Shown here: positions 6,855 to 52,314 of the stretch, in pieces | Layout: the number at the start of each line of letters is the position of its first letter | How positions within the stretch are numbered: the stretch's first letter is position 1 | Assembly: GCA_965261105.1 (NCBI GenBank) | Contig: CBDHCM010000006.1 | Coordinates: 1,970,091 to 2,034,090, forward strand | Source of the DNA: Candidatus Aldehydirespirator sp. | GTDB taxonomy: Bacteria > Actinomycetota > Acidimicrobiia > Acidimicrobiales > Aldehydirespiratoraceae | DNA: 64,000 nucleotides | Direction of reading: 5' to 3' | Program-made: the position numbers and the translations under genes | The notes under the pieces: generated by a model | Told to the model about the DNA's origin: nothing | Databases searched by the model: none | The model's input: the letters and a program-made list of their open reading frames with translations, nothing else

Positions 6855-9946
<3,092 letters not shown>

Positions 9947-30250: not shown

Positions 30251-30492
30251 GAAGCCGCATAGTGGCACGCGAGCGACACCCGCAGCCACCTCACTCCGAC
30301 CAACCGAGACACCAGCGCGACGGAATATTCTCAACACTCCAATGAATGGTCGCCTGTCGGGTTCCGTCAGGAGTGCGGCAGAAGTCGGTCTGAGGCGGGA
30401 TCCGGGGCATCCATATCGGGCCCCGAGCTCCCGACCTTCGGTCCCCCTTCTTTGCGGAAGGCGGTTTCAGCTAGTACCAACCTGTACGTAAG

Positions 30493-32127
30493 CCTGAATC
30501 CACCGACGGGTTTGTGGGATCGACGGTTGGGGCCGGTTGGCCGCTGGGCTGGTGCGTGTGTGCGGGCCGGCGCGTTTTGGGGCGTGCGAAACTGGAGTGC
30601 GGGGCTGGTGCGGGTTGGTGGCGCTGGGGGTGCTTGTTGGCTGCGTCGGGCCGGGGCGGCCGCTTAGATGAGCAGGGGCAGGTTGCGGATCCGGTCGAGG
30701 GCTGTGGTGAAGGCCGTGGCCCATGGCCAGTTGAGCGGCAGGCGCAGTCTGTGGCGGCCGCTGTGGTTGACGAGGCGGCCGGGCACGGCGAGGAGCCGGT
30801 TGCGGATGGTGGCCGCGACGGTGAGCTGCGCTGTGGGGTGGGCGCGGCCGAGGCGGGCGGTCCAGCGGGCGAGGTTGTGGGCGAGCACGCAGCAGGCGAG
30901 CCAGGCGCCGTTGGCGGGGAACTGTCTGGAGGGGCAGCGGCTGAGCCCGGAGTTCTCTTTGAGGTCGCGAATGGCGAGTTCCACGGTGGCGTGGCCGCGG
31001 TGGTAGGCGTCGGCGGCGACGGTGTCGAGGTCGGCTCGGTCGGTGACGAAGCAGTGGTGGCGCCAGTTGGGCCACAGCTGGGCTTGGGCGCCGATCAGGC
31101 GGGTGCGGCGCACGACGAGCCGCAGCTTGGCCCGCTCGCCGTCGGGGCCGCGGAGCTTGTCGCCGCGGCGGCCGGGGTCGATGGTGGTCTCAGCCACCTG
31201 GGCCTGCGCGCCGCGGGTGTAGGCGATCGCCTGCCAGGCGTCTTCGCCGATGGCCGCTACAGCTGCTTTGACCTTGGCGTTCTGTGGGATCGTGATCGAG
31301 TAGCGCGCGTTGTGGGCCCCGATGTCTGCGATCATCCCATAGGAGAAGAACCCCGCATCGGCGCGCACCGCGACCGCCGCGTCCGGCGCCAGGCGCCGCA
31401 CCCGGGCCAGGGCCTCGCGCGCGAAATGCTCGTTGCCGCGCTGCGACGATCCCGACCGCATCGCGGAGTGCAGCACCTCGCCGGTGTCTGATCGCACCGC
31501 CACCAGCGGGTGATAGCCCAACACTCCGGTGTGGCCGTACGCGGCGCCGTGCTTGGCCTTGGCGCACACCTCGCAGATCGTGGAGTCCAAATCCACGGTC
31601 ATCTCCGCGGCCGGCGCGGCGCCCACAGACCACGCCCGCACCAGCGCCTGCTCGGCCGCCTTGTCGAGCTGGCGCACATGCCCGAACATGAACGACCGCA
31701 AGAACGACCCCACAGTCGACGGTGCCATCACCCGAAACGGCAGCACCGCCTGCGACGCCGCGGCCCCCAGACGGCCGGTGTCGTCGATGCAGCGGCCGCC
31801 CACCAGCATCGACGCCACCAAAGTCAACACCTTGGGGCCCGCTCCCGAGCCCGCCGAGCCCGGCGGGCGCACCGTCTCGTCGATCAGCGACTCCAGCCCA
31901 AGGCGATCCATCACCGTGCCCGCCGGCAACAACCCCGCATCGGCCACCAAAGAAGCGTCGTCGAACACTGCCTCCAACCCGTCGATCCCGCCCGCTATGC
32001 TCCTCACAGGAAGTGCCTCCTCACGCAGCTGGAATAACTGTCGTTATTAACAGTGTTCTGCCACGTCAGGAGGCATTTCTGGTGGATGCTCCAACCCCAC
32101 AAACCCCACCGCGCCGGTGGATCCAGG
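30493..32127 (-). mobile_element. IS1380 family insertion sequence, copy 1
   Basis: TIRs CCTGAATCCACCG/CGGTGGATCCAGG; 5-bp target duplication GTAAG at 30488-30492 and 32128-32132. Confidence 0.95.
30664..32007 (-). CDS. IS1380 family DDE transposase
   Basis: VDLDST, GYHPL, VRADAGF, VELAIRDLK, NGAW...AHNL. Confidence 0.93.
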   Translation of the reverse strand: MRSIAGGIDGLEAVFDDASLVADAGLLPAGTVMDRLGLESLIDETVRPPGSAGSGAGPKVLTLVASMLVGGRCIDDTGRLGAAASQAVLPFRVMAPSTVGSFLRSFMFGHVRQLDKAAEQALVRAWSVGAAPAAEMTVDLDSTICEVCAKAKHGAAYGHTGVLGYHPLVAVRSDTGEVLHSAMRSGSSQRGNEHFAREALARVRRLAPDAAVAVRADAGFFSYGMIADIGAHNARYSITIPQNAKVKAAVAAIGEDAWQAIAYTRGAQAQVAETTIDPGRRGDKLRGPDGERAKLRLVVRRTRLIGAQAQLWPNWRHHCFVTDRADLDTVAADAYHRGHATVELAIRDLKENSGLSRCPSRQFPANGAWLACCVLAHNLARWTARLGRAHPTAQLTVAATIRNRLLAVPGRLVNHSGRHRLRLPLNWPWATAFTTALDRIRNLPLLI

Positions 32128-32233
32128 GTAAGAGCGCGTTTAACGTGGCATCTTGACAAAATCGGGCTACCAATCTGTACCTGTGGATAACCGCCAATAT
32201 CGGATCGTTGTTAGACGCTCGGGCATCTCGACA

Positions 32234-32749
32234 TCATGAAGCCGAAAGCAGATCTCCTACGGGTCGGGTCTGGCTTGTTCGGGCACGCTTCTTCGAGATA
32301 CGGCTCATGCGGTTGCGGGCGCGACGTCCTGCCTCACCTAGGTCGAGAGTCTCCGTCTTGGTCCGCATGGCCCGCAAGCACACCGGTTCGGTGGCGCTAC
32401 CCAATCGTTTCGACCAGTCGTCGATGTTCCCAAAAACCAACAGCACCAGGTCTTGCCGCCGGAGTTGGCGTCCTCTCGGATCGATCCAGATCACCTGCTG
32501 CTCGCGCTCGGCGCAGAGCAGGATCATATCGAGATTGGACGTCACGATGATCTGACTGGCTCCACTGGCGTGGCTCAGAACAGCCTCATCATCCGAGCCG
32601 CGAACGGGGCTTGGAGGGCTTGCGAGATCGTCGCCTACAAAGGAGACAGGGAACTGAAGCTCCCGGAGGGCAGAGGCCACTCTCCAAGGCAGGTTCTCAT
32701 CGAACAGCAGCCGGATCCCAGCCCGTGCTTCCCGCGATGCCATGGGCAA
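32234..32749 (-). CDS. DUF5615 PIN-like toxin (VapC45 type)
   Basis: LLFDENL, GSDDEAVL, IIVTSN; downstream of a DUF433 gene. Confidence 0.7.
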   Translation of the reverse strand: MPMASREARAGIRLLFDENLPWRVASALRELQFPVSFVGDDLASPPSPVRGSDDEAVLSHASGASQIIVTSNLDMILLCAEREQQVIWIDPRGRQLRRQDLVLLVFGNIDDWSKRLGSATEPVCLRAMRTKTETLDLGEAGRRARNRMSRISKKRARTSQTRPVGDLLSAS

Positions 32750-32755
32750 CCGGAC

Positions 32756-33433
32756 TCAGGCCGCCAAGGCGAGTTCGTAGTCGAGGGCTGATCGCACCTG
32801 CTCGGTGGTGAGCCGGTAGTCGTCGCATAGTTCGATGAGGTCCCATTGATCCGGTTCTTCTAGGTCGAGCAGGCTTGCGAGAAGATGTGTGGGAACCCTT
32901 GTGGCATCCACGCAGGGAGCCCCGGCCTGCACAGAAGGGTTGATCCAGACGCCCGGGTGCGGTCGCCAGATCGAGGCCATGTTCAAGTCGTTGAACGTTA
33001 CGCGCCTGAGCAGCGGCTCGATCATGCCCTGGAATGCCAGCTGTCCACGCATCCCGGCATCCTCCCAATCGCCCGCAATCTCCGCGAAGAACCCGACGCC
33101 GACCGTCGCCAGGCCCTTATGAGCAAATGGGCGGTCCGTGCCGAGAGTCTGCGCCAAGTGTTCGGCACCCCTCGCGATGTGGTCGCGTGGCACTCCTCTA
33201 CTCGTCAGCTCAGCGATCACCCTCAGGCTGAGAAGGTCCCAGAAGCTGAACAGTCCTGCCAGTTCTCCCGTCAGTAGCGGCGGCCGGTCCTTTCTCGGTC
33301 GAGTCCATCCCTCGATCCGTGCCCTTCCTTGCGGGAGTAGGCGCGCCACCTCGCTGATGTCGTAGATGCCCCGGCCTAGGTAGGAGACCATGCCGGAGCC
33401 CGAGGACGTCACTGCGGATATGCCCACGACCAT
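32756..33433 (-). CDS. HTH + DUF433 antitoxin (VapB45 type)
   Basis: YDISEVARLL HTH, FSFWDL, INPSVQAGAPCV..TRVP, YRLTTEQVRSALDYE. Confidence 0.8.
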   Translation of the reverse strand: MVVGISAVTSSGSGMVSYLGRGIYDISEVARLLPQGRARIEGWTRPRKDRPPLLTGELAGLFSFWDLLSLRVIAELTSRGVPRDHIARGAEHLAQTLGTDRPFAHKGLATVGVGFFAEIAGDWEDAGMRGQLAFQGMIEPLLRRVTFNDLNMASIWRPHPGVWINPSVQAGAPCVDATRVPTHLLASLLDLEEPDQWDLIELCDDYRLTTEQVRSALDYELALAA

Positions 33434-33710
33434 CAGAGTAGCTGTGGCATGCGACTAACCGAAACGAGTGTTCGGGGCACGACCGTCAGCGGCGACAGGG
33501 TTGCAGACTCGCGGACATGTTGGCTATGGGGCAGCGGAGCGGGGGTCGGTGCTCCGCACGCCGCGGCCGCCCACAACTCTGCGCACTGTAGCGGCCGCCG
33601 TTCGTGCTCCGACTCCGGCATGGCAACTGCCTACCGGATAGCTTGCGCGTCATCGTGGGCGGTACTTGCCGCGACGGCACGTTTGGAGTGACGACTCGGA
33701 AGGGACGGGC

Positions 33711-35246
33711 GTGGCGACTGATCTTGGTGAACTGCAGAACAAGCTATGGGGGGCGGCGGACCAGCTTCGGGCCAATTCTGGGCTGAAGGCGTCGGAGTAC
33801 GCCTCGCCGGTGCTGGGGCTCATCTTCTTGAGGTATGCCGACGAGCGGTTCGCCCAGACCTCCGAGGCCGTGGGCACGGGCTCTGCTCGCCGTCCGGTCG
33901 GCCCCGACGACTACCAGGCCGCAGGCGCGCTGTACCTGCCCGAACAGTCCCGGTTCGAGACGCTACTCGACCTGCCCGAGGACGCCGACATCGGCAAGGC
34001 CCTGAACCAGGCCATGGGCGGCATCGAGATCTACAACCCAGATCTCCGGGGCATGCTGCCGAGGGACTACTCCCGCATCCCCAACGACATCCTCGGAGAG
34101 TTGCTGCGGCTCCTGCGGGCCCTGCCGGGGGCGATCGAGGGCGACGGGTTCGGGCTCACCTACGAGTACTTCCTCGGCAAGTTCGCGTTCTCCGAAGGCC
34201 AGAAGGGCGGCGAGTTCTTCACCCCCACCTCGATCGTGCGGCTCATCGTGGAAATCCTCGAACCGTTCCACGGAAAGATCTACGACCCTGCGTGCGGCTC
34301 CGGCGGCATGTTCGTGCAGTCGGCCCACTTCGTCGAGCGTCACCGCCGCGACCCGGGCCAGAAGCTGTCCATCTACGGCCAGGAGAAGACCGGCGACACC
34401 GTCCGGCTCGCCAACATGAACCTGGCCGTCCACGGCCTCAGCGGCGACATCCGGGAGGGCAACACCTACTACGAGGACCTCCATGACTCCGTCGGCAACT
34501 TCGACTTCGTCATGGCCAACCCGCCCTTCAACGTCAACAAGATCGACAAGACCAAACTCGCGGACGATCCCAGGTTCCCGTTCGGCCTGCCGAGGCCCGA
34601 CAACGGCAACTACCTATGGGTACAGACCTTCTACTCCGCGCTCAACGACGCTGGCCGAGCCGGATTCGTCATGGCCAACTCCGCGTCGGACGCCCGAGGC
34701 AGCGAACTCGAGATCCGCCGCAAGCTCATCAAGGACCACAGCGTCGACGTGATCATCGCCGTCGGCACGAACATGTTCTACACCGTCACCCTGCCCGTGA
34801 CGCTGTGGTTCCTTGACCGCGGCAAGAAGAACACTGACCGAGCCGACCAGGTGCTCTTCATCGACGCCCGCGAGATCTACAACCAGATCGACCGAGCCCA
34901 CCGCGACTGGACGCCGCAGCACATCGAATTCCTCGCCAACATCGTTCGCCTCTGGCGAGGTGAAGGACCCGAGTTCGACGCAGGAAGCGATGAGATGCTT
35001 ACCGCCGGGCTTTCTGACGGGACGTACGGCGACGTGGCCGGTATCTGCGCCACTGCAACACTCGGGCAGATCGAGGAACAGGGCTGGAGTCTCAACCCTG
35101 GGCGCTATGTGGCCCCTCCAGCACTGATCGACGACGTGGATATCGACCAGGTTCTGCCAGGACTGTCCCAGGAGTTTTCCCGACTCTCCGCTGAGGCTGC
35201 GCGACTCACGGATGCTGTCCGCCAAACCCTTGAGATGATGACGTGA
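33711..35246 (+). CDS. hsdM: Type I R-M methyltransferase subunit
   Basis: [42 protein letters not shown]. Confidence 0.96.
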
Positions 35247-36472
35247 CACATCTATCCGAACTGTGTGTCGCGATTGTCGACTGCGAACACAAGACTGCTC
35301 CGAAGTCCGGGGATGGAACGGGTTACGCACTGGTAAGAACAACAAACATCGGGCGAGGGCGTCTCGACCTGACCAACGTCCACCGAATCGAGGCCACGGC
35401 CTACGAGGAGTGGACGCGTCGCGCAGTGCCTCAACCGGGTGACCTCATCCTTGCGCGAGAGGCACCTGTGGGGAATGTTGCCCTGGTTGCGTCCGGGATG
35501 GAACCGGTCTTAGGACAACGAACTGTCCTAATCAGGCCAGACGAGGAGAAGGTAGATGCGGGCTTCTTAACGTACCGACTGCTAGCACACGACCTACAAC
35601 ATTGGATGAGCGGCGTGGCCAACGGCGCAACGGTACCTCACCTCAATATGGAAGATATCCGCGCATTGCCTATGCCGGAGTTACCGCCACTTCGCGCGCA
35701 AAGCCAGATAGGGGCCACGCTAGCGGTGTTTGACGACTTGATCGAGAACAACCGGCGTCAGATTGAGATATTGGAGGAGATAACTCGATTGTTGTACCGT
35801 AAGTGGTTCGTTCACTTCCGATTCCCGGGGCATGAGGGCGTCGAGTTGGTCGACTCTGATCTCGGTCCGATCCCCGAGGGTTGGGCAGCAGGTGAGTTCT
35901 CGGATCTGGTGTCAGAGATCAAGGATACTGTTCCCCCCGAGGATATAGCAAGAGGCACGCCGGTCGTGGGACTCGAGAACTTGCCGAGACGCTCCACGAC
36001 GCTTCACGAATGGGAGAATGCATTAGACGTTGGAAGTCGGCGCAAGGTCTTCGTCGAGGGTGACATTCTGTTTGGGAAGATTCGTCCCTACTTCCACAAG
36101 GTGGTCGATGCGCCTATCTCTGGGTGTTCGTCGACTGATGCAATTGTCTTCAGACCGAAGGAGCATCGCCTGCGGTGCCGAGCCTTGGCAGTTGCTTCGA
36201 GTGATGAGTTCGTTGGAGTCGCGACTGCAACGTCCAACGGGACGAAGATGCCGAGGGCCAACACCGAGATTCTGATGACTTACGACATTCTTCATCCGAC
36301 CGAGGATGTCGAACGGGCCTTCAGCCAGACGGTAGGACCGATGGGCTCCCTTCGAAAGACCCTTGCAGCGCAGACCCGGAAACTGCGCGAGGCCCGTGAT
36401 CTGCTTCTGCCTCGGCTCGTCTCATGTGAGTCTGATGTGTCTGAGCTTGATTTGGGTCTGGTGGCGGGGTGA
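35243..36472 (+). CDS. hsdS: Type I R-M specificity subunit
   Basis: Two TRDs with conserved spacers (DDLIENNRR...IPEGW; [11 protein letters not shown]); visibly lower GC. Confidence 0.93.
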
Positions 36473-39400
36473 GCCCAACGGCTCTGACCGAGGATGGGCT
36501 GGTTGAGCAGCCTGCGCTGCGGCTGTTGTCGCAGTTGGGTTGGGAGGTCGCGTCGGGGTTCGACGAGACCCTAGGGTCTGCGGGCACGCTTGGCCGCGAT
36601 TCGCAGTCCGAGCCGATGCTCGGCCACCGGCTCCGGGACTCGCTACGCAACCTGAACCCGGGCCTTCCTGATGCGGCGATAGTGGAAGCCTCTGAGCTTC
36701 TGATTGGGGATCGGTCGGCGATGGATCGGGTTCGGGCGAACCGCGAGGTCCACGCGCTGCTCCGCGAGGGCGCGAGGGTCGAGACCGCCGGTGACGGTGG
36801 TGAGCGCCGGACGATCACGGTGCGGTTCGTCGACTGGAACCGTGCCGACGCGAACGACTGGCTGGCGGTTTCGCAGTTCTGGCTCGCGGGCGACATGTAC
36901 AAGCGCCGGGCCGACGTGGTGCTGTTCGTCAACGGAATCCCGCTGGTCTTCATCGAGTTGAAGGTCTCGCACAAGAACGTCCGCGACGCGTACGACGGGA
37001 ACCTCCGTGACTACCGCGACACCGTCCCGCACCTGTTCTGGTTTAATGCGTTCGTCGTCCTCTCCAACGGGGCCGACACCCTGGTTGGCTCGACGTTCGC
37101 TCCCTGGGATCACTTCGCTGAGTGGAAGAAGATCAACTCCGAGGGCGAACAGGGCGTGGTGTCGCTTGAGACTGCGCTGCGGGGAACGTGCGAGCGGCAC
37201 CGGCTGCTCGACCTGGTCGAGAACTTCGTCGCCTTCACCGAACGTCCCGGTGGCTTGGTCAAGGCGCTGGCCAAGAACCACCAGTTCCTTGGGGTGAACA
37301 ACTCGCTGGAGGCGCTCCGGGAGTTGCAGCAGCGCGAGGGCCGGCTCGGGGTGTTCTGGCACACCCAGGGGTCGGGCAAGTCGCTGTCGATGCTGTGGTT
37401 CACCCAGAAGGTCTTGCGCAAAGAGCCCGGCAACTGGACCTTCGTGCTGGTCACCGACCGTAAGGAGCTAGACGAACAGCTCTATGGGGACTTCGCCGAT
37501 TCTGGGGTCATCACCTCGGGGCGGGAGGTCCACGCTGAGGCGTCGGTCCATCTCCGCGAGCTGCTGGGCGAGGACCACCGGTACGTGTTCACGCTGATCC
37601 ACAAGTTCATCCCGCCCGAGAAGGGCCAGCGGATGCCGGTGCTGTCCGAGCGCCACGACATCGTGGTCATCACTGATGAGGCCCACCGCTCCCAGTACGA
37701 CACACTGGCCGCCAACATGCGCCTGGCGCTGCCCAACGCCTCGTTCCTCGGGTTCACCGGCACACCGCTCATCGCCGGTGAGGAGGAGACCCGGCGGGTG
37801 TTCGGCGACTACGTGTCGATCTACAACTTCCGGGACTCCATCGCCGACGGGGCTACCGTCCCGCTCTACTACGAGAACCGCATCCCGGAGCTGCAGCTCA
37901 CCAACGACGATTTCGACGACGAGCTGGAAGACCTCCTGGAGGAGGCTGCGCTCGACGACGCCCAAGAGAAGGCGGTGGCGCGCCGCTTCTCCAAGCAGTA
38001 CGAGCTGATCACCCGGCCCCAGCGCCTGAAGGAGATCGCCGAGGATCTGGTCCACCATTTCGTTAATCGGGGTTTCAGGGGCAAGGCCATGTACGTGGCC
38101 ATCGACAAGGCCACCGCGGTGCGCATGTACGACCTAGTCGAGGCCGAGTGGGCCCGCTACCTGGCCGAACTCGAAGACCGGCTGGCGGGCACGCCTGAAC
38201 TGGAGCGCCCGCACCTGGAGTCGCTCATCGAGTTCATGCGCAGCACCGACATGGCCGTGGTGGTGTCGCAGGCCCAGAACGAGGTGGCCGACATGGCCGC
38301 GGCCGGGCTCGACATCGCCAAGCACCGCACGCGGATAGTCAACGAGGACCTCGACTCCAAGTTCAAGGACCCCGACGACCCGTTCCGGCTGGTGTTCGTG
38401 TGCGCCATGTGGCTCACCGGCTTCGACTCGCCGTCGACATCGTCGGTGTATCTCGACAAGCCGATGCGCAACCACCTGCTGATGCAGACCATCGCCCGAG
38501 CCAACCGGGTATTCCCCGACAAGGACAACGGTCTCATCGTCGACTACGTGGGCGTGTTCCGCAACCTGGAGAGGGCCCTCGCCATCTACGGCGCTGACCG
38601 CACCGCATCCGGCGTCGACTCCCCCATCCGACCCAAGGACGACCTGATCGCCGAGCTGGACGCCGCGCTGACGGAGGTCACCGAGTTCTGCGATGCCAAC
38701 GACATCGATCTCGCCGACATGGAGGCCGCGCAGGGATTCGAGTTCGTCGCTCTCCAGAAGGCGGCCGTCGAAGCGCTGCGCATTGACGAACAGACCCGCC
38801 GACGGTATGTGTCGCTGGCCCGGCGGGTCCGCAAGACATTCAAAGCGCTGCTGCCTGATCCTGAGGCGCTCGCGGTCACCCACCGCGTGGCAGTGATCCG
38901 CTCGATTGCTTCGAAGATCGAATCGTTGTCGGAGGCGCCCGACATCAGCAAGGTGGTGGACTCGGTGTCGGACCTGCTGGACCGCTCGGTCGGCGCTAGG
39001 GAGTACATCATCCGCTCTGCCGGTGGGGCCGATCCGCTGATCGACCTCAACCAGCTCGACTTCGAGCAGCTCGCCCTGCGCTTCGCCGCCAACAAGCGCA
39101 CCGCGGCCAACGCCATCGAGAAGAACATCGACCAGCGGCTCGACGACGCGGTGCGCAAGAACCCGACACGGCTGGAGCTGGCCGAGCGGTTCCGGCAACT
39201 CATCGACGAGTACAACGCCGGCACCCACAACCTCGAGGAGTTCCTGCGCCGGCTCAAGGCCATCAACGACGAATTGACCGACGAAGAACAGCGAGCCGTC
39301 CGAGAAGACGCCACCGAGGCAGAGCTGGCCATCTTCGACCTGCTCACCAAGCCCGAGCCGGAGCTGACCAAGGTCGAAGCGCTCACGGTGAAGGGCGCAG

Positions 39401-40269
39401 CCAAGAAGCTGCTGGGACACATCGAGGACAAGCTCGTCCTCGACTGGAAGCGCCGCCAACAGACCCGCTCAGCCGTGAGGGTCGCTGTCAGGGATGTCCT
39501 TGACGCCGAGTTGCCCGAGGCTTACGGCCCCGAGTTATTCGACCGAAAGGTCGACGTCATTTTCGACCACATCTACGCCAGCTACTTCGACAACGGTGCA
39601 AGCGTCTACGACGCCCCTGATGCCAGTGTTGGCGTAGGCGCTGCGGTTGCGACGCTGCCGACGACCACCGAGGAGATCGGCGACGATCTGCTGGCTCACG
39701 TTCGCTCCGATCCCGAACTATTCGCCCGGCTCATGGAGACAGTTTTCGGCGCGAGCGCCACCTGGGCGTGCCCCACCGAGCAACTCCTTGTCCGCGACGA
39801 GACGCGAGCCGTCGAGTACAAGCAGACCGCCCGATGGAACGTGCGGGAGCAGCGCAGGGATAAGACGATGGAGCAAGTCGTCATCAAGACCGTCGCGGGC
39901 ATGCTCAACGACCGGGGCGGAACCCTACTGGTCGGCGCCACCGACGGCGGCGAGCCCGTCGGCCTCGCCGACGACTACGCCCAGGTCAAACCCCCCAGCG
40001 CCGACGGCTACGTGAACTGGCTGGACACGCTGTTCGAGAACCAGCTCGGCCACCCAGGCGCCAGCCGGGTCACCATCCGCATCGACCAGGTAGACGGCCA
40101 CGACGTCTGCCGCATCGACGTACCCGCCAGCTCCCGCCCCATCTGGGTCAAGAACAACAACGGCCCCGACACCATCTACCAACGCCGCAACAACTCCACG
40201 CGGCCAGTGCCGCCAGCCGAGATTGACAACTTCATCGCCGAGCGATTCGGAATTCAGCATGCGAGTTGA
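36469..40269 (+). CDS. hsdR: Type I R-M restriction subunit with C-terminal Schlafen/AlbA_2-like domain
   Basis: DVVLFVNGIPLVFIELK nuclease, QGSGKS, DEAHR, TGFD, QTIARANR; extra domain from about 39781. Confidence 0.93.
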   Translation: MSPTALTEDGLVEQPALRLLSQLGWEVASGFDETLGSAGTLGRDSQSEPMLGHRLRDSLRNLNPGLPDAAIVEASELLIGDRSAMDRVRANREVHALLREGARVETAGDGGERRTITVRFVDWNRADANDWLAVSQFWLAGDMYKRRADVVLFVNGIPLVFIELKVSHKNVRDAYDGNLRDYRDTVPHLFWFNAFVVLSNGADTLVGSTFAPWDHFAEWKKINSEGEQGVVSLETALRGTCERHRLLDLVENFVAFTERPGGLVKALAKNHQFLGVNNSLEALRELQQREGRLGVFWHTQGSGKSLSMLWFTQKVLRKEPGNWTFVLVTDRKELDEQLYGDFADSGVITSGREVHAEASVHLRELLGEDHRYVFTLIHKFIPPEKGQRMPVLSERHDIVVITDEAHRSQYDTLAANMRLALPNASFLGFTGTPLIAGEEETRRVFGDYVSIYNFRDSIADGATVPLYYENRIPELQLTNDDFDDELEDLLEEAALDDAQEKAVARRFSKQYELITRPQRLKEIAEDLVHHFVNRGFRGKAMYVAIDKATAVRMYDLVEAEWARYLAELEDRLAGTPELERPHLESLIEFMRSTDMAVVVSQAQNEVADMAAAGLDIAKHRTRIVNEDLDSKFKDPDDPFRLVFVCAMWLTGFDSPSTSSVYLDKPMRNHLLMQTIARANRVFPDKDNGLIVDYVGVFRNLERALAIYGADRTASGVDSPIRPKDDLIAELDAALTEVTEFCDANDIDLADMEAAQGFEFVALQKAAVEALRIDEQTRRRYVSLARRVRKTFKALLPDPEALAVTHRVAVIRSIASKIESLSEAPDISKVVDSVSDLLDRSVGAREYIIRSAGGADPLIDLNQLDFEQLALRFAANKRTAANAIEKNIDQRLDDAVRKNPTRLELAERFRQLIDEYNAGTHNLEEFLRRLKAINDELTDEEQRAVREDATEAELAIFDLLTKPEPELTKVEALTVKGAAKKLLGHIEDKLVLDWKRRQQTRSAVRVAVRDVLDAELPEAYGPELFDRKVDVIFDHIYASYFDNGASVYDAPDASVGVGAAVATLPTTTEEIGDDLLAHVRSDPELFARLMETVFGASATWACPTEQLLVRDETRAVEYKQTARWNVREQRRDKTMEQVVIKTVAGMLNDRGGTLLVGATDGGEPVGLADDYAQVKPPSADGYVNWLDTLFENQLGHPGASRVTIRIDQVDGHDVCRIDVPASSRPIWVKNNNGPDTIYQRRNNSTRPVPPAEIDNFIAERFGIQHAS

Positions 40270-40307
40270 GGCGAACTGCGCCGATCCAACCGATACCGAC
40301 CTGCCGT

Positions 40308-41402
40308 CTAGTGTCCTGTCTGGGGAATTCGTTGGATATATGAGGTGAGGTTGTCGAGTATCTCGTCTGCGGTCTTGTGCCATATGAAGGGTCTGGGGTT
40401 GTTGTTCCAGTTGTCGGTCCAGGCGTTGATGGAGTCTTTGAGGTCTGTGACGCTGGTGTGGGCGCCGCGGCGGATCCATTTTGTGGTGAGCTCTGAGAAC
40501 CAGCGCTCGACGAGGTTCATCCAGGAGCTGTAGGTGGGGGTGAAGTGGAAGCTGAAGCGGGGGTGGCGCACCAGCCAGCGCCCGATGGCGGGGGTCTTGT
40601 GGGTGGAGACGTTGTCCAGCACGATGTGCACCGCGAGGCCCTCGGGGACTTCTTTGTCGATGAGGTTCAGGAACTTGCGGAACTCCTCTGAGCGGTGCCG
40701 GGGCGTCATGGATGTGATGACGTTGCCGGTGGCGGCGTCGAGCGCGGCGAACAGGTTGGTGGTGCCGTGTCGGCGGTAGTCGTGGGTGCGCCGCTGGGGC
40801 GTGCCCGGCATCAGCGGCAGGATCGGGGCGGTGCGGTCCAGCGCCTGGATGCCGGTCTTCTCGTCGACGCAGAGCACCACCGCGGCCTCGGGCGGGTTCA
40901 AATACAGCCCGGCGACGTCTCTGACCTTGTCGACGAACTGCGGGTCCGGCGACAGCTTGAACTCCCCCACGAGGTGCGGCTTGAGCCCGAACGCCCGCCA
41001 GATGGAGTGCACCGAGGACCGCGAGATGCCCACCGCGGCGGCCATCGACCGAGTCGACCAGTGCGTCGCGTCGCGCGGGGCGGACTCCAGGGTGCGCACG
41101 ACCACCTCCTCGACCTTGGCATCGCCGATGGTGCGCGGCGGCCCCGGCCGCGGGTCGTCACAGAGCCCGTCGAGGCGCCGCGACGCGAACCTGGTGCGCC
41201 ACTTGGCGACCGTCGCGGGATGGCACCCCAGCCCCGCGGCGATCTCCTTGTTGTAGCGGCCCTCGGCCGCGGCCAGCACGATACGGCACCGCAACGCCAG
41301 AGCCTGAGACGACTTCGGCCGGCGCGCCCACCGCTCAAGCGTCTCGCGCTCCTCGCCGCTGAGCTCGACCACAACCGCCGGCCGTCCCCGCCGTGTGCCC
41401 AT
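40308..41402 (-). CDS. IS630 family transposase
   Basis: CVDEK, VLDNVSTH, SSWMNLVERWF. Confidence 0.95.
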   Translation of the reverse strand: MGTRRGRPAVVVELSGEERETLERWARRPKSSQALALRCRIVLAAAEGRYNKEIAAGLGCHPATVAKWRTRFASRRLDGLCDDPRPGPPRTIGDAKVEEVVVRTLESAPRDATHWSTRSMAAAVGISRSSVHSIWRAFGLKPHLVGEFKLSPDPQFVDKVRDVAGLYLNPPEAAVVLCVDEKTGIQALDRTAPILPLMPGTPQRRTHDYRRHGTTNLFAALDAATGNVITSMTPRHRSEEFRKFLNLIDKEVPEGLAVHIVLDNVSTHKTPAIGRWLVRHPRFSFHFTPTYSSWMNLVERWFSELTTKWIRRGAHTSVTDLKDSINAWTDNWNNNPRPFIWHKTADEILDNLTSYIQRIPQTGH

Positions 41403-41500: not shown

Positions 41501-43954
41501 ATGCCGTTCGAGAGTCCGGACTATCTGCTCAGCCAGCTAATGAAGAACGTGCACAACGGCACGATTCAGCTTCCGGACTTCCAGCGAGAGTGGAAGTGGG
41601 ATGACGATCGCATCGCGAGTCTGCTCGCCTCGATCTCAGTCGGGCATCCCGTAGGAGTTCTGATGATGCTTGAAGTGGCCGGCAGCGATGTGAATTTCGC
41701 TGCCAAGCCCCTCGCTGGTGCCGAAGGGGGTGTGACCGGGGAGCCGGAGCGACTGCTGCTAGACGGGCAGCAGCGCATGACTTCCCTCTTCCAGGCTCTC
41801 GCTTCAGACCGCCCGGTGCACACGAGCGACGGGCGCAAGAGGAGCCTCACTCGTTGGTACTACGTCGACATGGCGAAAGCGCTCGCTGACCCGAGCGACC
41901 GAGAGGAGGCGATCCGGTCGATCCCCGAAGACCGCGTCATCCGGGAGGACTTCGGCAGGTCCGTTGTGCTCGACCTCTCAACCCTAGATGCCGAGTGCAG
42001 AGCCGAGATGTTCCCGCTGTCGGGAGTGTTCGATTCGGCAATGACGAACAAGTGGATGATGCACTACGCCCAACTCGATCAGGAGCGAGTCTCCGAGAGG
42101 CTCCTGCGGTGGGACCGTTTCCAGAAGGAGGTTCTGATCAATTTTACCAGCTATCTGGTCCCAGTGATAGTCCTAACGAAGGGTACCCCCAAGGAGGCCG
42201 TGTGTACGGTCTTTGAGAAGGTCAACACTGGTGGGGTACCACTCAACGTCTTCGAGTTGCTCACGGCGACGTTCGCAGCGCAGAACTTCAGGCTCAAGGA
42301 CGACTGGTATGAACGCAGCCAGAAACTCCGAAGACGCAAGATCAACAGCACACTCGAGAGCACTGACTTCCTCCAGGCCGTGACTCTTCTCGCGACCAGC
42401 GCCCGACGAATCTCCTGGACGGGCTCAGCCGGCGATGCACCCGGGGTCTCGTGCAAGCGTAAGGACATCCTACGGCTGACCCTTGATGAGTACCGAGAGT
42501 GGGCTGACGCGGCTGCCGAGGGATTCGACTGGGCTGCGAAGTTCCTAGCGCAGGAAGGCATCTTCACCGCTCGAGACGTCCCGTACCGGACTCAGCTTGT
42601 CCCGCTCGCCGCCATACGTGCGACCCTCGGCGAGGAGATCGAGAACCACGGCACGATCGCGCGAATCCGTCAGTGGTACTGGAGTGGCGTGCTTGGCGAA
42701 CTCTACGGCAGCGCTGTCGAAACCCGGTTCGCTCGAGACTTGGAGGAGGTCGTTGATTGGATCAAGTCCGACGGACCTGCGCCTGGATCGGTGAGTGCAG
42801 CAAGCTTCAACTCCTCGCGTCTGCTAACGCTTCGAACCCGCAATTCTGCTGCTTATAAGGGTCTCTACGCACTCCTTATGCGCAATGGAGGCCTTGACTG
42901 GCAGAAACACAAACCGATGTCACTGGCCTCCTTCTTCGATTATCGCGTTGATATTCATCACATATTTCCCCAGCATTGGTGCAATAGCAATGGCGTGGAC
43001 ATAGCCCACCGCGAGAGCATCGTTAACAAGACGGCCATTTCGTACGATACCAACAGACGTATTGGTGGCCGGGCTCCGAGCGTCTACCTACCAATCCTGG
43101 AACGGCATGCCGGTATCTCAGCCGATCAGCTGGATCCGATACTAACGACGCACGCAATTGATGCGGAAGCCCTTCGTGCGGATGACTTCATCCGATTCTT
43201 CGAGGACCGCAAACGCCGACTACTTGATGTCATCAGCGGTGCGATGGTCAAGCCTGTGAACATCGACGATGAGAACATCGAGACAGAGCTCAGTCTCTTT
43301 GAGCCCGAGCCCGACGATATTCCAGACGAGCCCGACCAATTCACCGCATGGGTCAGCGACACATCAGGCCCTTCCTCCGTTAGGAGGCAGAAATTCCAGA
43401 CGCCAGAGCCACAATCGGATGGCACGCCGAGAGCGTGGCTGATCAGGGCCGGTAGCTCGGGAGAGGATGAGGATCTCAATATCGAGGACGGCCTAGCTGT
43501 CGTGCGCTTCGTTCAGGTTCCTGATCTGACAGACGTTTCGACATGGGACCAACTGAGGGAGATCGTCCGCCGTTCGCATCCGGGAGACAGCGATAGCAAG
43601 ATCGGCAACGTCGCAGGCCAGCTGTGGGCATTGCGATCACGGGTGCGAACGGGCGACCTCGTGGCACTGCCGCTCAAGACGACTTCGCAGATTGCGTTGG
43701 GCATCGTGACCGCTGGGTACGAGTACCGGGAGGTGTCGGACGTAAGAAGGCGTCACCTGGTCTCAGTGGACTGGAAGCGCGTGAACCTCCCACGTAGTGC
43801 TGTCCAACAGGATCTGCTGCACTCGCTCGGAGCATTCATGACCGTCTACGAGATCACACGCAACGACGGCGCATGGCGACTCCTGCAGATCCTTGCGACG
43901 GGCAGCGACCCTGGCCCGAGGGCAGAACCGGTCGAAGCGGTCGCGGCCAATTGA
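41501..43954 (+). CDS. GmrSD-family type IV restriction enzyme (DUF262 + HNH) with C-terminal Mrr-N-like domain
   Basis: QLPDFQREWKW, LLDGQQR, FEKVNTGG, DIHHIFP...N...N; C-terminal AWLIRAG...GDLVALP...G...Y...VDW. Confidence 0.85.
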   Translation: MPFESPDYLLSQLMKNVHNGTIQLPDFQREWKWDDDRIASLLASISVGHPVGVLMMLEVAGSDVNFAAKPLAGAEGGVTGEPERLLLDGQQRMTSLFQALASDRPVHTSDGRKRSLTRWYYVDMAKALADPSDREEAIRSIPEDRVIREDFGRSVVLDLSTLDAECRAEMFPLSGVFDSAMTNKWMMHYAQLDQERVSERLLRWDRFQKEVLINFTSYLVPVIVLTKGTPKEAVCTVFEKVNTGGVPLNVFELLTATFAAQNFRLKDDWYERSQKLRRRKINSTLESTDFLQAVTLLATSARRISWTGSAGDAPGVSCKRKDILRLTLDEYREWADAAAEGFDWAAKFLAQEGIFTARDVPYRTQLVPLAAIRATLGEEIENHGTIARIRQWYWSGVLGELYGSAVETRFARDLEEVVDWIKSDGPAPGSVSAASFNSSRLLTLRTRNSAAYKGLYALLMRNGGLDWQKHKPMSLASFFDYRVDIHHIFPQHWCNSNGVDIAHRESIVNKTAISYDTNRRIGGRAPSVYLPILERHAGISADQLDPILTTHAIDAEALRADDFIRFFEDRKRRLLDVISGAMVKPVNIDDENIETELSLFEPEPDDIPDEPDQFTAWVSDTSGPSSVRRQKFQTPEPQSDGTPRAWLIRAGSSGEDEDLNIEDGLAVVRFVQVPDLTDVSTWDQLREIVRRSHPGDSDSKIGNVAGQLWALRSRVRTGDLVALPLKTTSQIALGIVTAGYEYREVSDVRRRHLVSVDWKRVNLPRSAVQQDLLHSLGAFMTVYEITRNDGAWRLLQILATGSDPGPRAEPVEAVAAN

Positions 43955-45885
43955 CGAGAATGCGACTCCCGCGGGAGCACGGCGGAGAGCGGAGAGGCAC
44001 ACATGCCGCTGGATGAATGGGCTGGGCCCGGCAGTGTTCTGGGCTGCTACATATCCGAAGAGTCGAGTAGGACCCTTGCTTCATATCGCGCTCAGGCCAA
44101 CCTGATCGCTGAGCATGCCAACGTAGAGCAGGACACGGCGCACGGCGGCTACCAGCATCGGCAGCTCTTTGAACTTGTCCAGAACAGCGCCGATGCGCTC
44201 TGGGCCGACTCTGGCGCCCAACCGAATGACGAGTACGGCCCACGGCCTGCACGCGGGCGGGTCGAGATCCGTCTGACCGAGAACCGCCTCTACTGCGCCG
44301 ACGATGGAAAGCCCATCCACCCGGACGGCGTGACGGCTCTCATGTTCTCGCACATGTCACCCAAGAGGGGTACCAGCCAGATCGGCACCTTCGGCTTGGG
44401 CTTCAAGGCTGTTCTCGGCGTGAGTGACTCCCCCGAGTTCTTCAGCCGCTCAGGCTCATTCCGATTCGACCGCGCTCGCTCGCAGGAACGGGTGCGCGCC
44501 ATCAGGCCGAATGCTGAGAACTGTCCGGTGCTGCGCCTTCCGGAACCGATCGACCCGGCCGAATGCTGGGAGCGAGACGCTGTGTTACGCGAGCTCATGG
44601 AGTGGGCGGTCAACATCGTGCGGTTGCCCCTCAGGCGAGGAGCGCGCGACGACGTCCGCGAGCAGATGCGCGCCTTCCCCGCCGAGTTTCTTCTATTTGT
44701 CACTCACGTACGAAAGCTCGCGCTCATTGACGATGCCGACGTTGTGGACCGAGTACTGGAACTGGAGAGAGTCGACGACAACTGCCTCCTAGCCGACGGT
44801 GACGCGACCAGCGAGTGGAAGCTCTTTGAGCGCACCTGCATGCTTTCGAGCGACGCCCTTGCCGACCGGCGGCCTGACGACGATCGAGAGGAGGTACCAA
44901 TTTGGTGGGCCGCGCCCCTCGACCGGCTCGACCGGCCTGGCAAGTTCTGGGCGTTCTTCCCAACCAACACAGTGAGCCTCATCCCAGGCATCCTGAATGC
45001 GCCCTGGAAGACGAACGAGGATCGTCAGAACCTTCTAACCGGCCGTTACAACGACGAATTGATCGAGTCGGCGTCGGAACTGATCGCCGAGGCACTGTCA
45101 GTCCTCTCTACGGATGACGACCCAGCCCGACACTTGGACGCGCTGCCGCGACGACACGAGGCAGGCGACCCCGAGCAGGCGGATCTGCTCCGCGAGCGAC
45201 TGTTCGCTGCTCTTGACCGACGCGCCATCGTTCCCGATCAGGACGGAAGACTCCGCGGTGTTCGGGAGGTTTCCTACCCTCCGCAGCAGCTGACCTTGGA
45301 TCGCGAATTCGAAATGGTGTCGCTAGACCGATGGGCTGCGCATCCAAGTAGGCCACCCGACTGGCTTCACCACAAGGCGCTTGCTCGGACCCGGCTCGCA
45401 ACGATCGACCGGATGTTCCACTCGCCGGGCCAGCCGGGAGTCAGGGTGCCGCGAGCACCGCGCGCATCCATCGCCAGATGGCTCGAAGCGCTCGTTCAGC
45501 ACGCGGAGACAAGCGGCGAGATTGCCGCATCGACGGCGGCAATTCAGACTGCCGCGCTCATCCCTGCGGACAGACGCTCAGGCGTGGATCTTGGCGCGAT
45601 CGTGCTGACGGCATTCGGCGATTGGCGCCCGCCGGACCCCGACCTTCTCTTTCTCCCTGATCCGTCGCCAGCGGTCGGCAGCACGATGGACCGGGAGTCC
45701 TGCGTCCATCCGGCGCTGGTGTCGGACAAGGGGACGCTCGCGGCCTTGAGAGAGCTTGGCCTTAGGCGACCCTCGGCGGACAGTCGGTTCAGACGCCTCG
45801 CTGAGCAGGTCTTTGCACACCGCAGCACAACGACTCTCGACCAAGATCCCCATGAGTCTTTCTGGGTTCTCGCACGAAGTCTGAG

Positions 45886-47521
45886 CCTGGATCCACCGGC
45901 GCGGTGGGGTTTGTGGGGTTGGAGCATCCACCAGAAATGCCTCCTGACGTGGCAGAATACTGTTAATAACGACAGTTATTCCAGCTGCGTGAGGAGGCAC
46001 TTCCTGTGAGGAGCATAGCGGGCGGGATCGACGGGTTGGAGGCAGTGTTCGACGACGCTTCTTTGGTGGCCGATGCGGGGTTGTTGCTGGCGGGCACGGT
46101 GATGGATCGCCTTGGGTTGGAGTCGCTGATCGACGAGACGGTGCGCCCGCCGGGCTCGGCGGGCTCGGGAGCGGGCCGCAAGGTGTTGACTTTGGTGGCG
46201 TCGATGCTGGTGGGCGGCCGCTGCATCGACGACACCGGCCGTCTGCGGGCCGCGGCGTCGCAGGCGGTGCTGCCGTTTCGGGTGATGGCGCCGTCGACTG
46301 TGGGGTCGTTCTTGCGGTCGTTCAGGTTCGGGCATGTGCGCCAGCTCGACAAGGCGGCCGAGCAGGCGCTGGTGCGGGCGTGGTCTGTGGGCGCCGCGCC
46401 GGCCGCGGAGATGACCGTGGATTTGGACTCCACGATCTGCGAGGTGTGCGCCAGGGCCAAGCACGGCGCCGCGTACGGCCACACCGGAGTGTTGGGCTAT
46501 CACCCGCTGGTGGCGGTGCGATCAGACACCGGCGAGGTGCTGCACTCCGCGATGCGGTCGGGATCGTCGCAGCGCGGCAACGAGCATTTCGCGCGCGAGG
46601 CCCTGGCCCGGGTGCGGCGCCTGGCGCCGGACGCGGCGGTCGCGGTGCGCGCCGACGCGGGGTTCTTCTCCTATGGGATGATCGCAGACATCGGGGCCCA
46701 CAACGCGTCCTACTCGATCACGATCCCACAGAACGCCAAGGTCAAAGCAGCTGTAGCGGCCATCGGCGAAGACGCCTGGCAGGCGATCGCCTACACCCGC
46801 GGCGCGCAGGCCCAGGTCGCTGAGACCACCATCGACCCCGGCCGCCGCGGCGACAAGCTCCGCGGCCCCCACGGCAAGCGGGCCAAGCTGCGGCTCGTCG
46901 TGCGCCGCACCCGCCTGATCGGCGCCCAAGCCGAGCTGTGGCCCAACTGGCGCCACCACTGCTTCGTCACCGACCGAGCCGACCTCGACACCGTCGCCGC
47001 CGACGCCTACCACCGCGGCCACGCCACCGTGGAACTCGCCATTCGCGACCTCAAAGAGAACTCCGGGCTCAGCCGCTGCCCCTCCAGACAGTTCCCCGCC
47101 AACGGCGCCTGGCTCGCCTGCTGCGTGCTCGCCCACAACCTCGCCCGCTGGACCGCCCGCCTCGGACGCGCCCACCCCACAGCGCAGCTCACCGTCGCGG
47201 CCACCATCCGCAACCGGCTCCTCACCGTGCCCGGCCGCCTCGTCAACCACAGCGGCCGACACAGACTGCGCCTGCCGCTCAACTGGCCATGGGCCACGGC
47301 CTTCACCACCGCCCTGGGACGCATCCGCAGCCTGCCCCTGCTCATCTGACCGGCCGCCCCGGCCCGGCGCAGCCAACAAGCACCCCCAGCGCCACCAACC
47401 CGCACCAGCCCCCCCACACCAGCCTCGCACACCCCAAAACGCGTCGGCCCGCACACACGCACCAGCCCAGCCGCCAACCGGCCCCAACCGTCGAACCCAC
47501 AAACCCGTCGGTGGATTCAGG
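45886..47521 (+). mobile_element. IS1380 family insertion sequence, copy 2
   Basis: Same TIRs as copy 1; target duplication CTGAG at 45881-45885 and 47522-47526. Confidence 0.96.
46006..47349 (+). CDS. IS1380 family transposase
   Basis: Near-identical to 30664..32007. Confidence 0.93.
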   Translation: MRSIAGGIDGLEAVFDDASLVADAGLLLAGTVMDRLGLESLIDETVRPPGSAGSGAGRKVLTLVASMLVGGRCIDDTGRLRAAASQAVLPFRVMAPSTVGSFLRSFRFGHVRQLDKAAEQALVRAWSVGAAPAAEMTVDLDSTICEVCARAKHGAAYGHTGVLGYHPLVAVRSDTGEVLHSAMRSGSSQRGNEHFAREALARVRRLAPDAAVAVRADAGFFSYGMIADIGAHNASYSITIPQNAKVKAAVAAIGEDAWQAIAYTRGAQAQVAETTIDPGRRGDKLRGPHGKRAKLRLVVRRTRLIGAQAELWPNWRHHCFVTDRADLDTVAADAYHRGHATVELAIRDLKENSGLSRCPSRQFPANGAWLACCVLAHNLARWTARLGRAHPTAQLTVAATIRNRLLTVPGRLVNHSGRHRLRLPLNWPWATAFTTALGRIRSLPLLI

Positions 47522-50171: not shown

Positions 50172-50266
50172 GGCAAAGAAAAGCCCCGCCAGTGCACCAC
50201 CGACAAGCGATGGTGGACGGCGGGGAAGATTGGTTGATTTCTAGCAGATCAACGAGGGCAATGCAA
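50172..50266 (-). ncRNA. Candidate small RNA 'B', copy 1, with own promoter
   Basis: Minus strand TTGCAT-N17-TAGAAA, then CCAATC, CCCCGCC...GGCGGGG hairpin and CTTTTCTTT tail; 3 copies in window. Confidence 0.55.
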
Positions 50267-50280
50267 CCACGGTGGCAAAG

Positions 50281-50889: not shown

Positions 50890-50985
50890 GGCTGTGGCCT
50901 CCCTTCGAGCATGCGTCGATCGGCACGCCAGTAACCACGGGGTTCGCCGCGGCCATCAGGCCGACTCCTCTTCGCGTACCGCTCG

Positions 50986-52140: not shown

Positions 52141-52213
52141 GATAGCTCCTTTCTATTCATTGTGTGATGAACCGAGCAGTACCGGACCGCTCGGCGCCGA
52201 CCAGCATAGCTAG

Positions 52214-52285: not shown

Positions 52286-52314
52286 CAAACGGTTGATCAG
52301 CAGAGCCTCGGGCG

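Follow-up and report, generated by a model that had tools for sequence, protein, structure and literature searches.

The hsdMSR operon and the HsdR-Schlafen fusion protein

The analysis described here concerns a stretch of 64,000 nucleotides from Candidatus Aldehydirespirator sp. (assembly GCA_965261105.1, contig CBDHCM010000006.1, positions 1,970,091 to 2,034,090; hereafter the window), in which the last gene of a type I restriction-modification (RM) operon encodes the restriction subunit HsdR continued at its C-terminus by a putative Schlafen/AlbA_2 nuclease domain. The operon lies on the forward strand in the order hsdM-hsdS-hsdR. Its first gene, hsdM (33666..35246, +), encodes the type I methyltransferase subunit (Pfam N6_Mtase 274.5 bits, HsdM_N 70.2 bits; PADLOC MTase_I 667.9 bits), with a real start that may lie a few codons 3' of the TTG. 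The hsdS gene (35243..36472, +) encodes a full-length specificity subunit (Pfam Methylase_S 43.8 bits; PADLOC Specificity_I models matching residues 6-396) and overlaps both neighbours, hsdM and hsdR, by 4 bases at each end, the hsdM stop overlapping the hsdS start. The hsdR-Slfn fusion gene (36469..40269, +) is a single unbroken frame for a protein of 1266 amino acids, which scores 470 bits against NCBIfam TIGR00348 (hsdR; cut-off 284.55) and 561.4 bits against PADLOC REase_I over residues 11-1012; no model of PADLOC (2023) matches its Schlafen tail.

Within the HsdR part, the PD-(D/E)xK nuclease domain HSDR_N occupies residues 6-213 (36484..37107, +; Pfam 143.5 bits), and all 146 aligned homologues share its residues D149, E163 and K165. 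It is followed by the superfamily 2 (SF2) motor, residues 271-693 (37279..38547, +), in which Pfam places SWI2_SNF2 (241.7 bits) and ResIII (65.6 bits) at 271-494 and a T1R_D3-like domain (62.4 bits) at 621-693. The Walker A motif GSGKS (301-305) and the DEAH box (403-406) are both present, with G303 and K304 kept in all 146 homologues and D403, E404 and A405 in 145 of them, and the closest solved structure to the HsdR part is EcoR124I HsdR (E 3e-34, residues 118-713). The helical C-terminal domain of HsdR, T1RH-like_C/DUF3387 (PF11867), covers residues 717-1034 (38617..39570, +; Pfam 113.5 bits). The type I RM operon is thus intact, and HsdR retains its DNase, its SF2 translocase and its DUF3387 tail.

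A preliminary description of this DNA, made from the letters alone, had proposed that the frame runs on past the normal end of HsdR into a Schlafen domain, and the domain searches bear this out. The string KVDVIFDHIY ends at residue 1034, as does DUF3387, and this is the usual C-terminus of unfused relatives, of which 36 cleanly unfused ones (1035-1125 amino acids) stop soon after. The strings that it had quoted from the tail, DETRAVEYKQT, KTVAGMLNDRGGTLLVGATD and IYQRRNNST, are all present with no intervening stop; only the start that it gave, 39560, misses the reading frame by a base, for residue 1031 is encoded from 39559 on. Past DUF3387 comes a linker of 69 residues (1035-1103; 39571..39777, +), predicted as a disordered stretch and then two short helices (~1072-1093); AlphaFold, run on residues 1040-1266, gave a pLDDT of 43-65 for the first 30 residues of the model and placed the helices at model residues 33-41 and 43-54. 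The Schlafen/AlbA_2 nuclease domain is placed at residues 1104-1260 (39778..40248, +; Pfam match 1111-1247) by Pfam, profile matches to the Protein Data Bank (PDB), the model and Foldseek. By the Pfam, NCBIfam and PADLOC assignments, this domain is joined covalently to the complete HsdR of an hsdMSR operon, and that the fusion is real we regard as practically certain.

The assignment as AlbA_2, also made in the preliminary description, is reached along several lines and goes far beyond chance. Pfam SLFN_AlbA_2 (PF04326) scores 47.7 bits in the full protein, above its gathering score of 25.3, and covers 117 of its 118 profile positions; run on the last 236 residues alone it scores 51.6 bits (E 1.7e-13). 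The tail was aligned with 94 diverse relatives (95 sequences in total), and this alignment was used both as a profile and for AlphaFold2. Against the PDB, the profile matched SLFN14 (5.9e-9), SLFN11 (8e-9), SLFN13 (4e-8) and CbCash (9ylu, 4.5e-6), and also SLFN5, SLFN12 and the bacterial AlbA_2 structures 3lmm and 2kyy, with the E-x4-E-F-K and GG.LLIGVdD blocks aligned in the SLFN14, SLFN11 and SLFN13 matches. The AlphaFold2 model (residues 1040-1266) has a mean pLDDT of 87.7 and a pTM of 0.77, the Schlafen domain itself reaching 95-98, and Foldseek paired it at probability 1.00 with 3lmm (5e-7), 2kyy, SAMD9 (7ksp, 9o0d), SLFN11 (7fex) and SLFN13 (5yd0).

The motif anticipated for Schlafen AlbA_2 domains is found in the fusion protein as E1111-x4-E1116-x-K1118 followed by N1147..G1150 G1151..L1153..G1156..D1159. 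Residues E1111, E1116, K1118, N1147, G1150, G1151, G1156, G1165, D1169, D1179 and R1239 are invariant in the 95-sequence alignment and D1159 is kept in at least 90% of it; in the set of 107 fused HsdR homologues, 106 retain E1111, as many retain E1116, 102 retain K1118 and 101 retain D1159. We take E1111, E1116, K1118 and D1159 (putative catalytic codons at 39799-39801, 39814-39816, 39820-39822 and 39943-39945, +) to be the equivalents of the catalytic residues of SLFN13 and SLFN11. The Ex4ExK signature is described as the Schlafen nuclease motif (PMC13056530), and mammalian Schlafens are described as carrying two lobes (N and C) per chain, the single domain of bacteria being homologous to the C-lobe alone (preprint 10.64898/2026.05.29.728809). 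The mammalian SLFN11, SLFN13 and SLFN14 proteins and the SAMD9 tRNase domain share the fold and the catalytic motif of the window's domain. On this evidence the nuclease domain consists of one Schlafen/AlbA_2 lobe, and its E-x4-E-x-K...D active site is intact. The Pfam scan of the fusion protein gave no Csx15, CARF, Ago or GHKL ATPase domain. PrrC, the tRNase associated with another type I system, combines an ABC-ATPase-like N-domain with a HEPN-type nuclease, and at E<=0.1 neither the full protein nor its 236-residue tail matched any PrrC, HEPN or ABC-type family of Pfam or NCBIfam.

Distribution, gain and loss of the Schlafen module

The fusion is not unique to this assembly. A word-indexed protein search with residues 1040-1266, limited to proteins of 696-2216 amino acids, gave 395 proteins at E<=1e-3 among 2430 candidates, and in the best 120 of these 395 matches PF04326 and PF11867 occur together without exception (120/120), mostly in proteins of 1260-1280 amino acids that also have the N-terminal and motor domains of HsdR. 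Their sources, which name them plainly as 'HsdR family type I site-specific deoxyribonuclease', an annotation that passes over the added domain, include Candidatus Poriferisodalis, metagenome-assembled genomes (MAGs) of Acidimicrobiales/Acidimicrobiaceae and the cultured Streptomyces capoamus (WP_353755119.1), together with a single partial protein from an alphaproteobacterium. The species genomes of GTDB, when scanned, gave 16 loci, almost all in MAGs of Acidimicrobiia, and a match to the Schlafen tail was found in 21 of 41 genomes (the window's own plus 40 relatives). Further afield, in the proteins P0177 and P0245, the Schlafen domain is joined to types of HsdR that lack DUF3387.

The window's own genome has three HsdR-Slfn genes, one of them from a different HsdR lineage. 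The first paralogue, ~635 kb upstream of the window (locus L007, 3540-7352, -), encodes 1270 amino acids that are 88% identical to the window's protein over 1265 residues, with a Schlafen domain ~80% identical to the window's, and has its own hsdM (9827-11401). Between the two, open reading frames (ORFs) of 313 and 278 amino acids show only a weak Methylase_S match, and the hsdS of this paralogue may be unusual or damaged. The third gene (locus L008, 6802-10350, +) encodes an HsdR-like protein of 1182 amino acids without DUF3387, only ~25% identical in the core, whose Schlafen domain at 996-1135 is 38% identical to that of the window. The ORFs of 200 or more amino acids in the 13-kb locus of this gene include neither an hsdM nor an hsdS. 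The same solitary arrangement recurs in a second genome (locus L010, 3820-7323, +; 1167 amino acids, without DUF3387, and no hsdM or hsdS found in the 13-kb locus), and in both genomes the gene is divergently paired with one for an M78-peptidase (RmrA/CapP-like) protein, so that the solo HsdR-like-Slfn gene and the M78 peptidase gene possibly form a separate, methyltransferase-independent defence pair. Several relatives have open frames of similar length (1155-1169 amino acids) bearing a Schlafen domain. Beside the L008 gene lies an ORF (38-2431, +) that matches only the C-terminal part (profile ~600-1350) of the PADLOC Avs2 models; this frame reaches the edge of the examined locus and may simply be cut there.

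The history of the module was followed on the HsdR core alone (query residues 1-1035), and the counts given here refer to the 120 closest proteins listed. These cores are 76-96% identical to the query, and PF04326 is present in 80 of the proteins and absent from 40; the unfused forms are mostly 1035-1065 amino acids long and end right after DUF3387. A quick core tree (FastTree) of 144 labelled rows, 108 fused and 36 cleanly unfused, implies at least 5 changes of state, of which well-supported branches force at least 4, against an average of 32.3 when the labels are shuffled on the tree; its rows pool matches of the tail search and of the core search, which skews the proportions towards fused forms. 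Three rows were left out, two with a partial Schlafen domain (P0273, P0282) and one with the linker only, and the count becomes 6 changes if the two partial ones are taken as fused.

One case of absence is a congeneric orthologue (genome G020; locus L009, 3030-6347, -), which is 85% identical over residues 1-1094 and unfused, ending 6 residues past the equivalent of A1100, that is, at the exact boundary of the module. This orthologue, the HsdR of locus L025 and protein P0275 are variants of 1099-1105 amino acids that keep the linker and the two helices and have no Schlafen domain. Such linker-only variants are likely to be secondary losses, or else the linker is an older optional tail. The idea that the Schlafen part had become a gene of its own in these loci was also considered: no Schlafen match lies downstream of the Schlafen-less hsdR in any of the four loci in question (L009, L023, L024 and L025), and these are therefore not split genes.

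Over the 107 fused homologues, median identity is 84% for the core, 74% for the Schlafen part and lowest, 56%, for the linker. In 10 pairwise comparisons, dN/dS (Nei-Gojobori) was 0.14-0.33 for the Schlafen part and 0.11-0.15 for the core, crude estimates at a third-position GC content (GC3) of 0.88 and a dS of 0.4-1.0, and a range that excludes the saturated comparisons with L008, L010 and L021 (dS not estimable or ratio ~1). A recent foreign origin of the module was considered and rejected, its GC content being 0.66 and its GC3 0.89, next to 0.65 and 0.88 for the core. The module is inherited and under purifying selection, and closely similar HsdR cores have acquired or lost it repeatedly.

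That the fusion might be a decaying or accidental one without function, or an artefact of assembly or annotation, would agree with the faster divergence of the module than of the HsdR core and with the several truncated or Schlafen-less variants. Such an origin is very improbable in view of the number of independent fused sequences, which exceeds 100 and is spread over many assemblies, the dN/dS of the Schlafen part, the conserved active site and the independent occurrence of the fusion on different HsdR lineages. The letters of the window were also compared with Logan contigs of the runs X1 and X3, which cover 39567-40135 and 39567-40152 with 0 differences; the stretch 39300-40300 is tiled by contigs that show 0 differences, and in each run a single contig spans the linker and the Schlafen domain. 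These two runs come from one sample, possibly the window's own source, and being not independent they serve as a weak check of the assembly only. Other contigs of the same runs join over in-frame skips of 72 nt (39474-39547) and 108 nt (39612-39721, in the linker), which may represent linker-length variants, the paralogue or other strains.

Proposed function and trigger of the HsdR-borne domain

The preliminary description had named Schlafen domains as tRNA/RNA endonucleases, and experiments now show bacterial ones to act as phage-defence tRNases in other architectures (PMC13056530, PMC13462974). Taboada et al. 2026 (PMC13056530) describe RorSlfn5 as cutting the anticodon arms of tRNA upon sensing a T5 protein and as protecting Escherichia coli from phages; EcoSlfn7, a DUF262-Slfn protein (pSlfn7), protects E. 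coli against several phages in the same account. Two further systems place a Schlafen tRNase under a nucleic-acid immune sensor that switches it on by oligomerisation: Cash (CRISPR-associated Schlafen) is described as cleaving tRNA T-loops after cA4-driven filament formation in type III CRISPR (PMC13462974), and SLFN-pAgo as a guided Argonaute sensor of invading DNA that triggers tRNA cleavage by its Schlafen part (preprint 10.64898/2026.05.29.728809). The sensor modules of both differ from HsdR, and oligomerisation of the HsdR-borne domain is only proposed here. SLFN11, whose tRNase is activated by binding of single-stranded DNA according to PMC13056530, likewise unites a helicase-type domain and a Schlafen nuclease; its domain order and helicase family differ from those of HsdR-Slfn.

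By homology to these enzymes, the HsdR-borne Schlafen domain would quite likely be an active defence RNase, and its substrate would probably be RNA, most likely tRNA. The anatomy of the fusion is well supported, and a role as a second, RNA-directed effector is probable. A different use of the same fold would be an accessory nucleic-acid module, which binds or cuts RNA, R-loops or single strands met by the motor (clearing transcripts or local phage RNA) or is a mere binding or assembly domain, with no global depletion of tRNA. AlbA_2/Schlafen domains bind DNA too, and the structural matches include entries titled 'hSAMD9_DBD with DNA' (7ksp) and 'DNA/RNA binding protein' (SLFN5); moreover, the window's domain rides on a DNA translocase and the module is dispensable and often lost. 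Against this, the acidic catalytic residues are invariant across the 95 aligned relatives and occur in 101-106 of the 107 fused proteins, which speaks for catalysis over mere binding, and all bacterial Schlafens characterised to date cleave tRNA, according to the texts of PMC13056530, PMC13462974 and preprint 10.64898/2026.05.29.728809. We consider an accessory role improbable.

The company kept by the nearest Schlafen domains bears on what might trigger this one. We searched 1.84 billion representative proteins exhaustively with HMMER; 4738 of them matched at E<=1e-3, of which 1993 reached E<=1e-10, and the conserved core corresponds to residues 1104-1260. A Pfam scan of the 50 longest proteins among the best 150 matches showed that 21 are fused to DNA-directed defence enzymes: HsdR or HsdR fragments in 9, two of them without DUF3387; GmrSD_N (DUF262) in 5 (P0153, P0171, P0218, P0249, P0271); the BREX Lon-like protein BrxL in 3 (P0202, P0204, P0210); an Eco57I/MmeI-type methyltransferase in another 3 (P0165, P0221, P0224); and a DUF4011-AAA_11 helicase in 1 (P0132). 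In the other 29 no domain besides Schlafen was recognised. This range of partners makes the clade a mobile module, mostly C-terminal, which has been joined recurrently to DNA-directed defence enzymes. Among the mentions of Schlafen in a survey of BREX systems (PMC12839542), the domain appears only in a histidine-kinase/wHTH form, with no BrxL fusion.

As an RNase, the Schlafen domain would give the restriction complex a second effector, so that DNA cleavage would be accompanied by a halt of translation and, as its consequence, by growth arrest or abortive infection. Type I enzymes form R2M2S1 complexes and cleave DNA on stalling or collision. In the mechanism that we propose, the RM complex would be the sensor, engaging unmodified DNA; translocation, stalling or collision of its motors would let the Schlafen domains tethered to neighbouring R subunits meet, two being available in each R2M2S1 complex and more gathering when complexes collide, and the gathered domains would assemble into an active oligomer, as other Schlafen nucleases require. 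The trigger is the weakest step of this explanation. We slightly favour firing on engagement with foreign DNA because the other partners of the module sense or process DNA and have no common complex to guard, because one HsdR-like carrier seems to work without a methyltransferase, and because known Schlafens switch on by assembly. That the particular trigger is engagement with unmodified DNA, by which the domains are brought together, is nevertheless a tentative proposal, and the whole chain, an RNase effector of the restriction complex fired by engagement of foreign DNA, is possible at somewhat less than even chances. Rather doubtful is the wider proposition that the restriction complex serves as a foreign-DNA sensor from which restriction and tRNA depletion fire on one recognition event within one polypeptide, once ATP-driven translocation on unmodified DNA has gathered the single-lobe domains of different HsdR subunits through stalling or collision, and that the same clip-on module makes dual DNA/RNA effectors of GmrSD-like, BrxL, MmeI-like and solo HsdR-like enzymes.

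The closest functional precedent suggests another wiring. As the preliminary description had stated, PrrC is a separate tRNase that guards the type IC system EcoPrrI, to which it is physically coupled as a second, translation-targeting line of defence (PMC12707154); HsdR-Slfn shares this coupling of a type I RM system to an RNase, but PrrC is a separate protein of unrelated fold, while here a Schlafen/AlbA_2 domain is fused to the C-terminus of HsdR. The trigger of PrrC, inhibition of EcoPrrI by Stp, is established, whereas that of HsdR-Slfn is only proposed. With no PrrC-type domain found in it, HsdR-Slfn falls outside the PrrC family, though it may work like EcoPrrI-PrrC. In such a guard model, put forward in the preliminary description and amounting to a covalent version of EcoPrrI-PrrC, the Schlafen RNase would be held inactive by the working complex and released when a phage anti-restriction protein, such as a DNA mimic or a Stp-like peptide, disables it. 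PrrC is encoded inside the type IC locus and activated when T4 Stp inhibits EcoPrrI, and PARIS likewise senses anti-restriction (PMC12707154). The DNase kept by HsdR would also fit, as an RNase firing only when DNA cleavage has failed would not be redundant, and the long predicted linker would let the domain dock on the complex and be released from it.

Other observations speak against a guard. The Schlafen domain is unrelated to PrrC, the Pfam and NCBIfam searches having found neither PrrC nor HEPN families, and the same clade is carried by GmrSD_N proteins, BrxL, MmeI-like methyltransferases, a helicase and a solo HsdR-like protein without a nearby methyltransferase, which share no 'guarded' complex. 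DNA mimics such as Ocr bind the M2S1 core and are not known to bind HsdR, which also counts against this model, and neither the sequence nor the comparative data favour its trigger over others. The partner survey and the solo HsdR-like carrier fit an arrangement in which the partner senses and the Schlafen domain executes at least as well as they fit a guard. We regard the guard model as unlikely, with roughly half the odds of the sensor-coupled trigger.

Several considerations weigh against reading the domain as an RNase effector fired by foreign DNA. The module is dispensable, one third of the 120 closest listed cores being without it and at least 5 gains or losses having occurred, and in every one of the 107 fused homologues its Schlafen part evolves faster than does the core, at about twice the dN/dS. 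Key residues are substituted in 1 to 6 of the 107 fused proteins. The substrate (tRNA, other RNA or DNA) and the trigger are both deduced from homology alone, and the idea of collision and dimerisation is built on the general mechanics of type I enzymes. As HsdR has a DNase of its own, a second effector acting on the same signal, unmodified DNA, would be partly redundant, and this redundancy is an argument for the guard model. Finally, an RNase that fires on unmodified DNA would risk self-intoxication whenever host sites are transiently unmethylated.

Part of this picture is already in print. Publications of 2025-26 describe bacterial Schlafen tRNases of phage defence, the modular way in which these are fused and how often they are linked to RM systems (PMC13056530, PMC13462974, preprint 10.64898/2026.05.29.728809). 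Like HsdR-Slfn, the pSlfn1-55 proteins of Taboada et al. (PMC13056530) join an E-x4-E-x-K nuclease to a variable partner and are found in defence islands; in most of those described there the Schlafen domain is N-terminal, whereas here it is C-terminal on a 1100-residue enzyme with its own DNase. DUF262/GmrSD_N-Slfn proteins, comparable to pSlfn7, are among the closest relatives of the window's domain. Fusions of Schlafen to RM components are known as well: TRD-Slfn (pSlfn19) and methyltransferase-Slfn (pSlfn22; PMC13056530; Cluster 3 of Weickert et al. 2026, PMC13462974), and Schlatpase-HsdS in Poribacteria (preprint 10.64898/2026.05.29.728809). These share with HsdR-Slfn the covalent joining of a Schlafen domain to an RM component, but they involve a specificity or methyltransferase subunit, or an added GHKL ATPase, while here the carrier is the restriction/translocase subunit and there is no GHKL ATPase.

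In the literature we found no description of a Schlafen domain fused to HsdR. The word 'HsdR' has 0 occurrences in the text of PMC13056530, PMC13462974 and preprint 10.64898/2026.05.29.728809, figures and the supplements of the preprint lying outside this search. HsdR is absent from the 55 pSlfn compositions in Supplementary Table 2 of PMC13056530, none of which has PDDEXK plus P-loop plus pSlfn; the accessions PF04313, PF18766, PF11867 and PF04851 have 0 occurrences in the 17 supplementary files of that paper, and 'hsdr', 'resiii' and 'swi2' have 0 occurrences in its architecture table. Three inspected members of pSlfn15 (P-loop_NTPase.pSlfn) are 460-520 amino acids long. In Supplementary Data 3 of PMC13462974, a word search for 'HsdR', 'type I restriction', 'R subunit' and the accessions of two fused proteins gave 0 occurrences, and an entry of HsdR length is possible there. 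The apparently undescribed part is thus the fusion to the restriction and motor subunit HsdR, an architecture that domain databases will already display automatically.

The wiring between restriction and abortive infection has been an open matter since PrrC-EcoPrrI. Here the RNase cannot dissociate from its sensor, both being one polypeptide, and the coupling is therefore directly testable by point mutants. Nature also supplies controls, in the form of 85%-identical orthologues with and without the module and of three fused genes in one genome. Many defence-linked bacterial Schlafens adjoin RM systems, with an activation mechanism described as still open in PMC13462974, and an HsdR-borne Schlafen domain would be a clean model for how RM-linked Schlafens are activated. 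The combination also parallels human SLFN11, with its helicase-type domain and Schlafen tRNase.

The defence island around the operon

The operon lies within an island of other defence genes. Directly 3' of it, past an IS630-like transposase gene (40308-41402, -; Pfam/PADLOC), is a gene for an 817-residue GmrSD_N (DUF262) protein (41501-43954, +) whose C-terminus is PDC-S02-like (residues 645-812, PADLOC candidate); this is apparently a type IV-like enzyme whose C-terminal module is not the standard one. Next comes a Tiamat TmtA-like gene (44003-46009, +), which matches only positions 12-415 of the 1538 of the PADLOC profile, its N-terminal third, and is apparently cut short by an insertion sequence (IS). 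On the other side of the operon there is a DUF433/DUF5615 gene pair (32234-33433, -; Pfam/PADLOC). The type I RM, GmrSD-like and Tiamat-like genes all lie within 10 kb of the Schlafen fusion, with PbeA-like, NYN and DndB genes further along, and HsdR-Slfn is accordingly a Schlafen domain fused to another domain no more than 10 kb from known defence genes, the two properties by which PMC13056530 delimits pSlfn proteins.

Two IS copies flank these genes. The left copy (30601..32133, -) has a DDE_Tnp_1_4 transposase at 30664-32007, and the right copy (45880..47412, +), with its transposase at 46006-47349, cuts the Tiamat-like gene. Together they form an inverted repeat of 1533 nt at 98% complementarity, with a 114-nt extension at 93% (30491-32133 / 45880-47523). 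The 13.7-kb block between them holds the DUF433/DUF5615 pair, hsdMSR-Slfn, the IS630-like transposase gene, the GmrSD-like gene and the truncated Tiamat gene, and it looks like a composite-transposon-like or invertible defence segment. No tRNA gene was found in the 64,000-nt window. The GC content at 32-46 kb, 0.59-0.65, is lower than in most flanking windows, which have 0.63-0.71 (mostly 0.65-0.70). Adjoining the island at 47624-53028 is a Dnd/Pbe-related cluster, which comprises a PbeA-like helicase (47624-50116), an NYN-domain protein, DndB and a Zn-ribbon/HNH protein.

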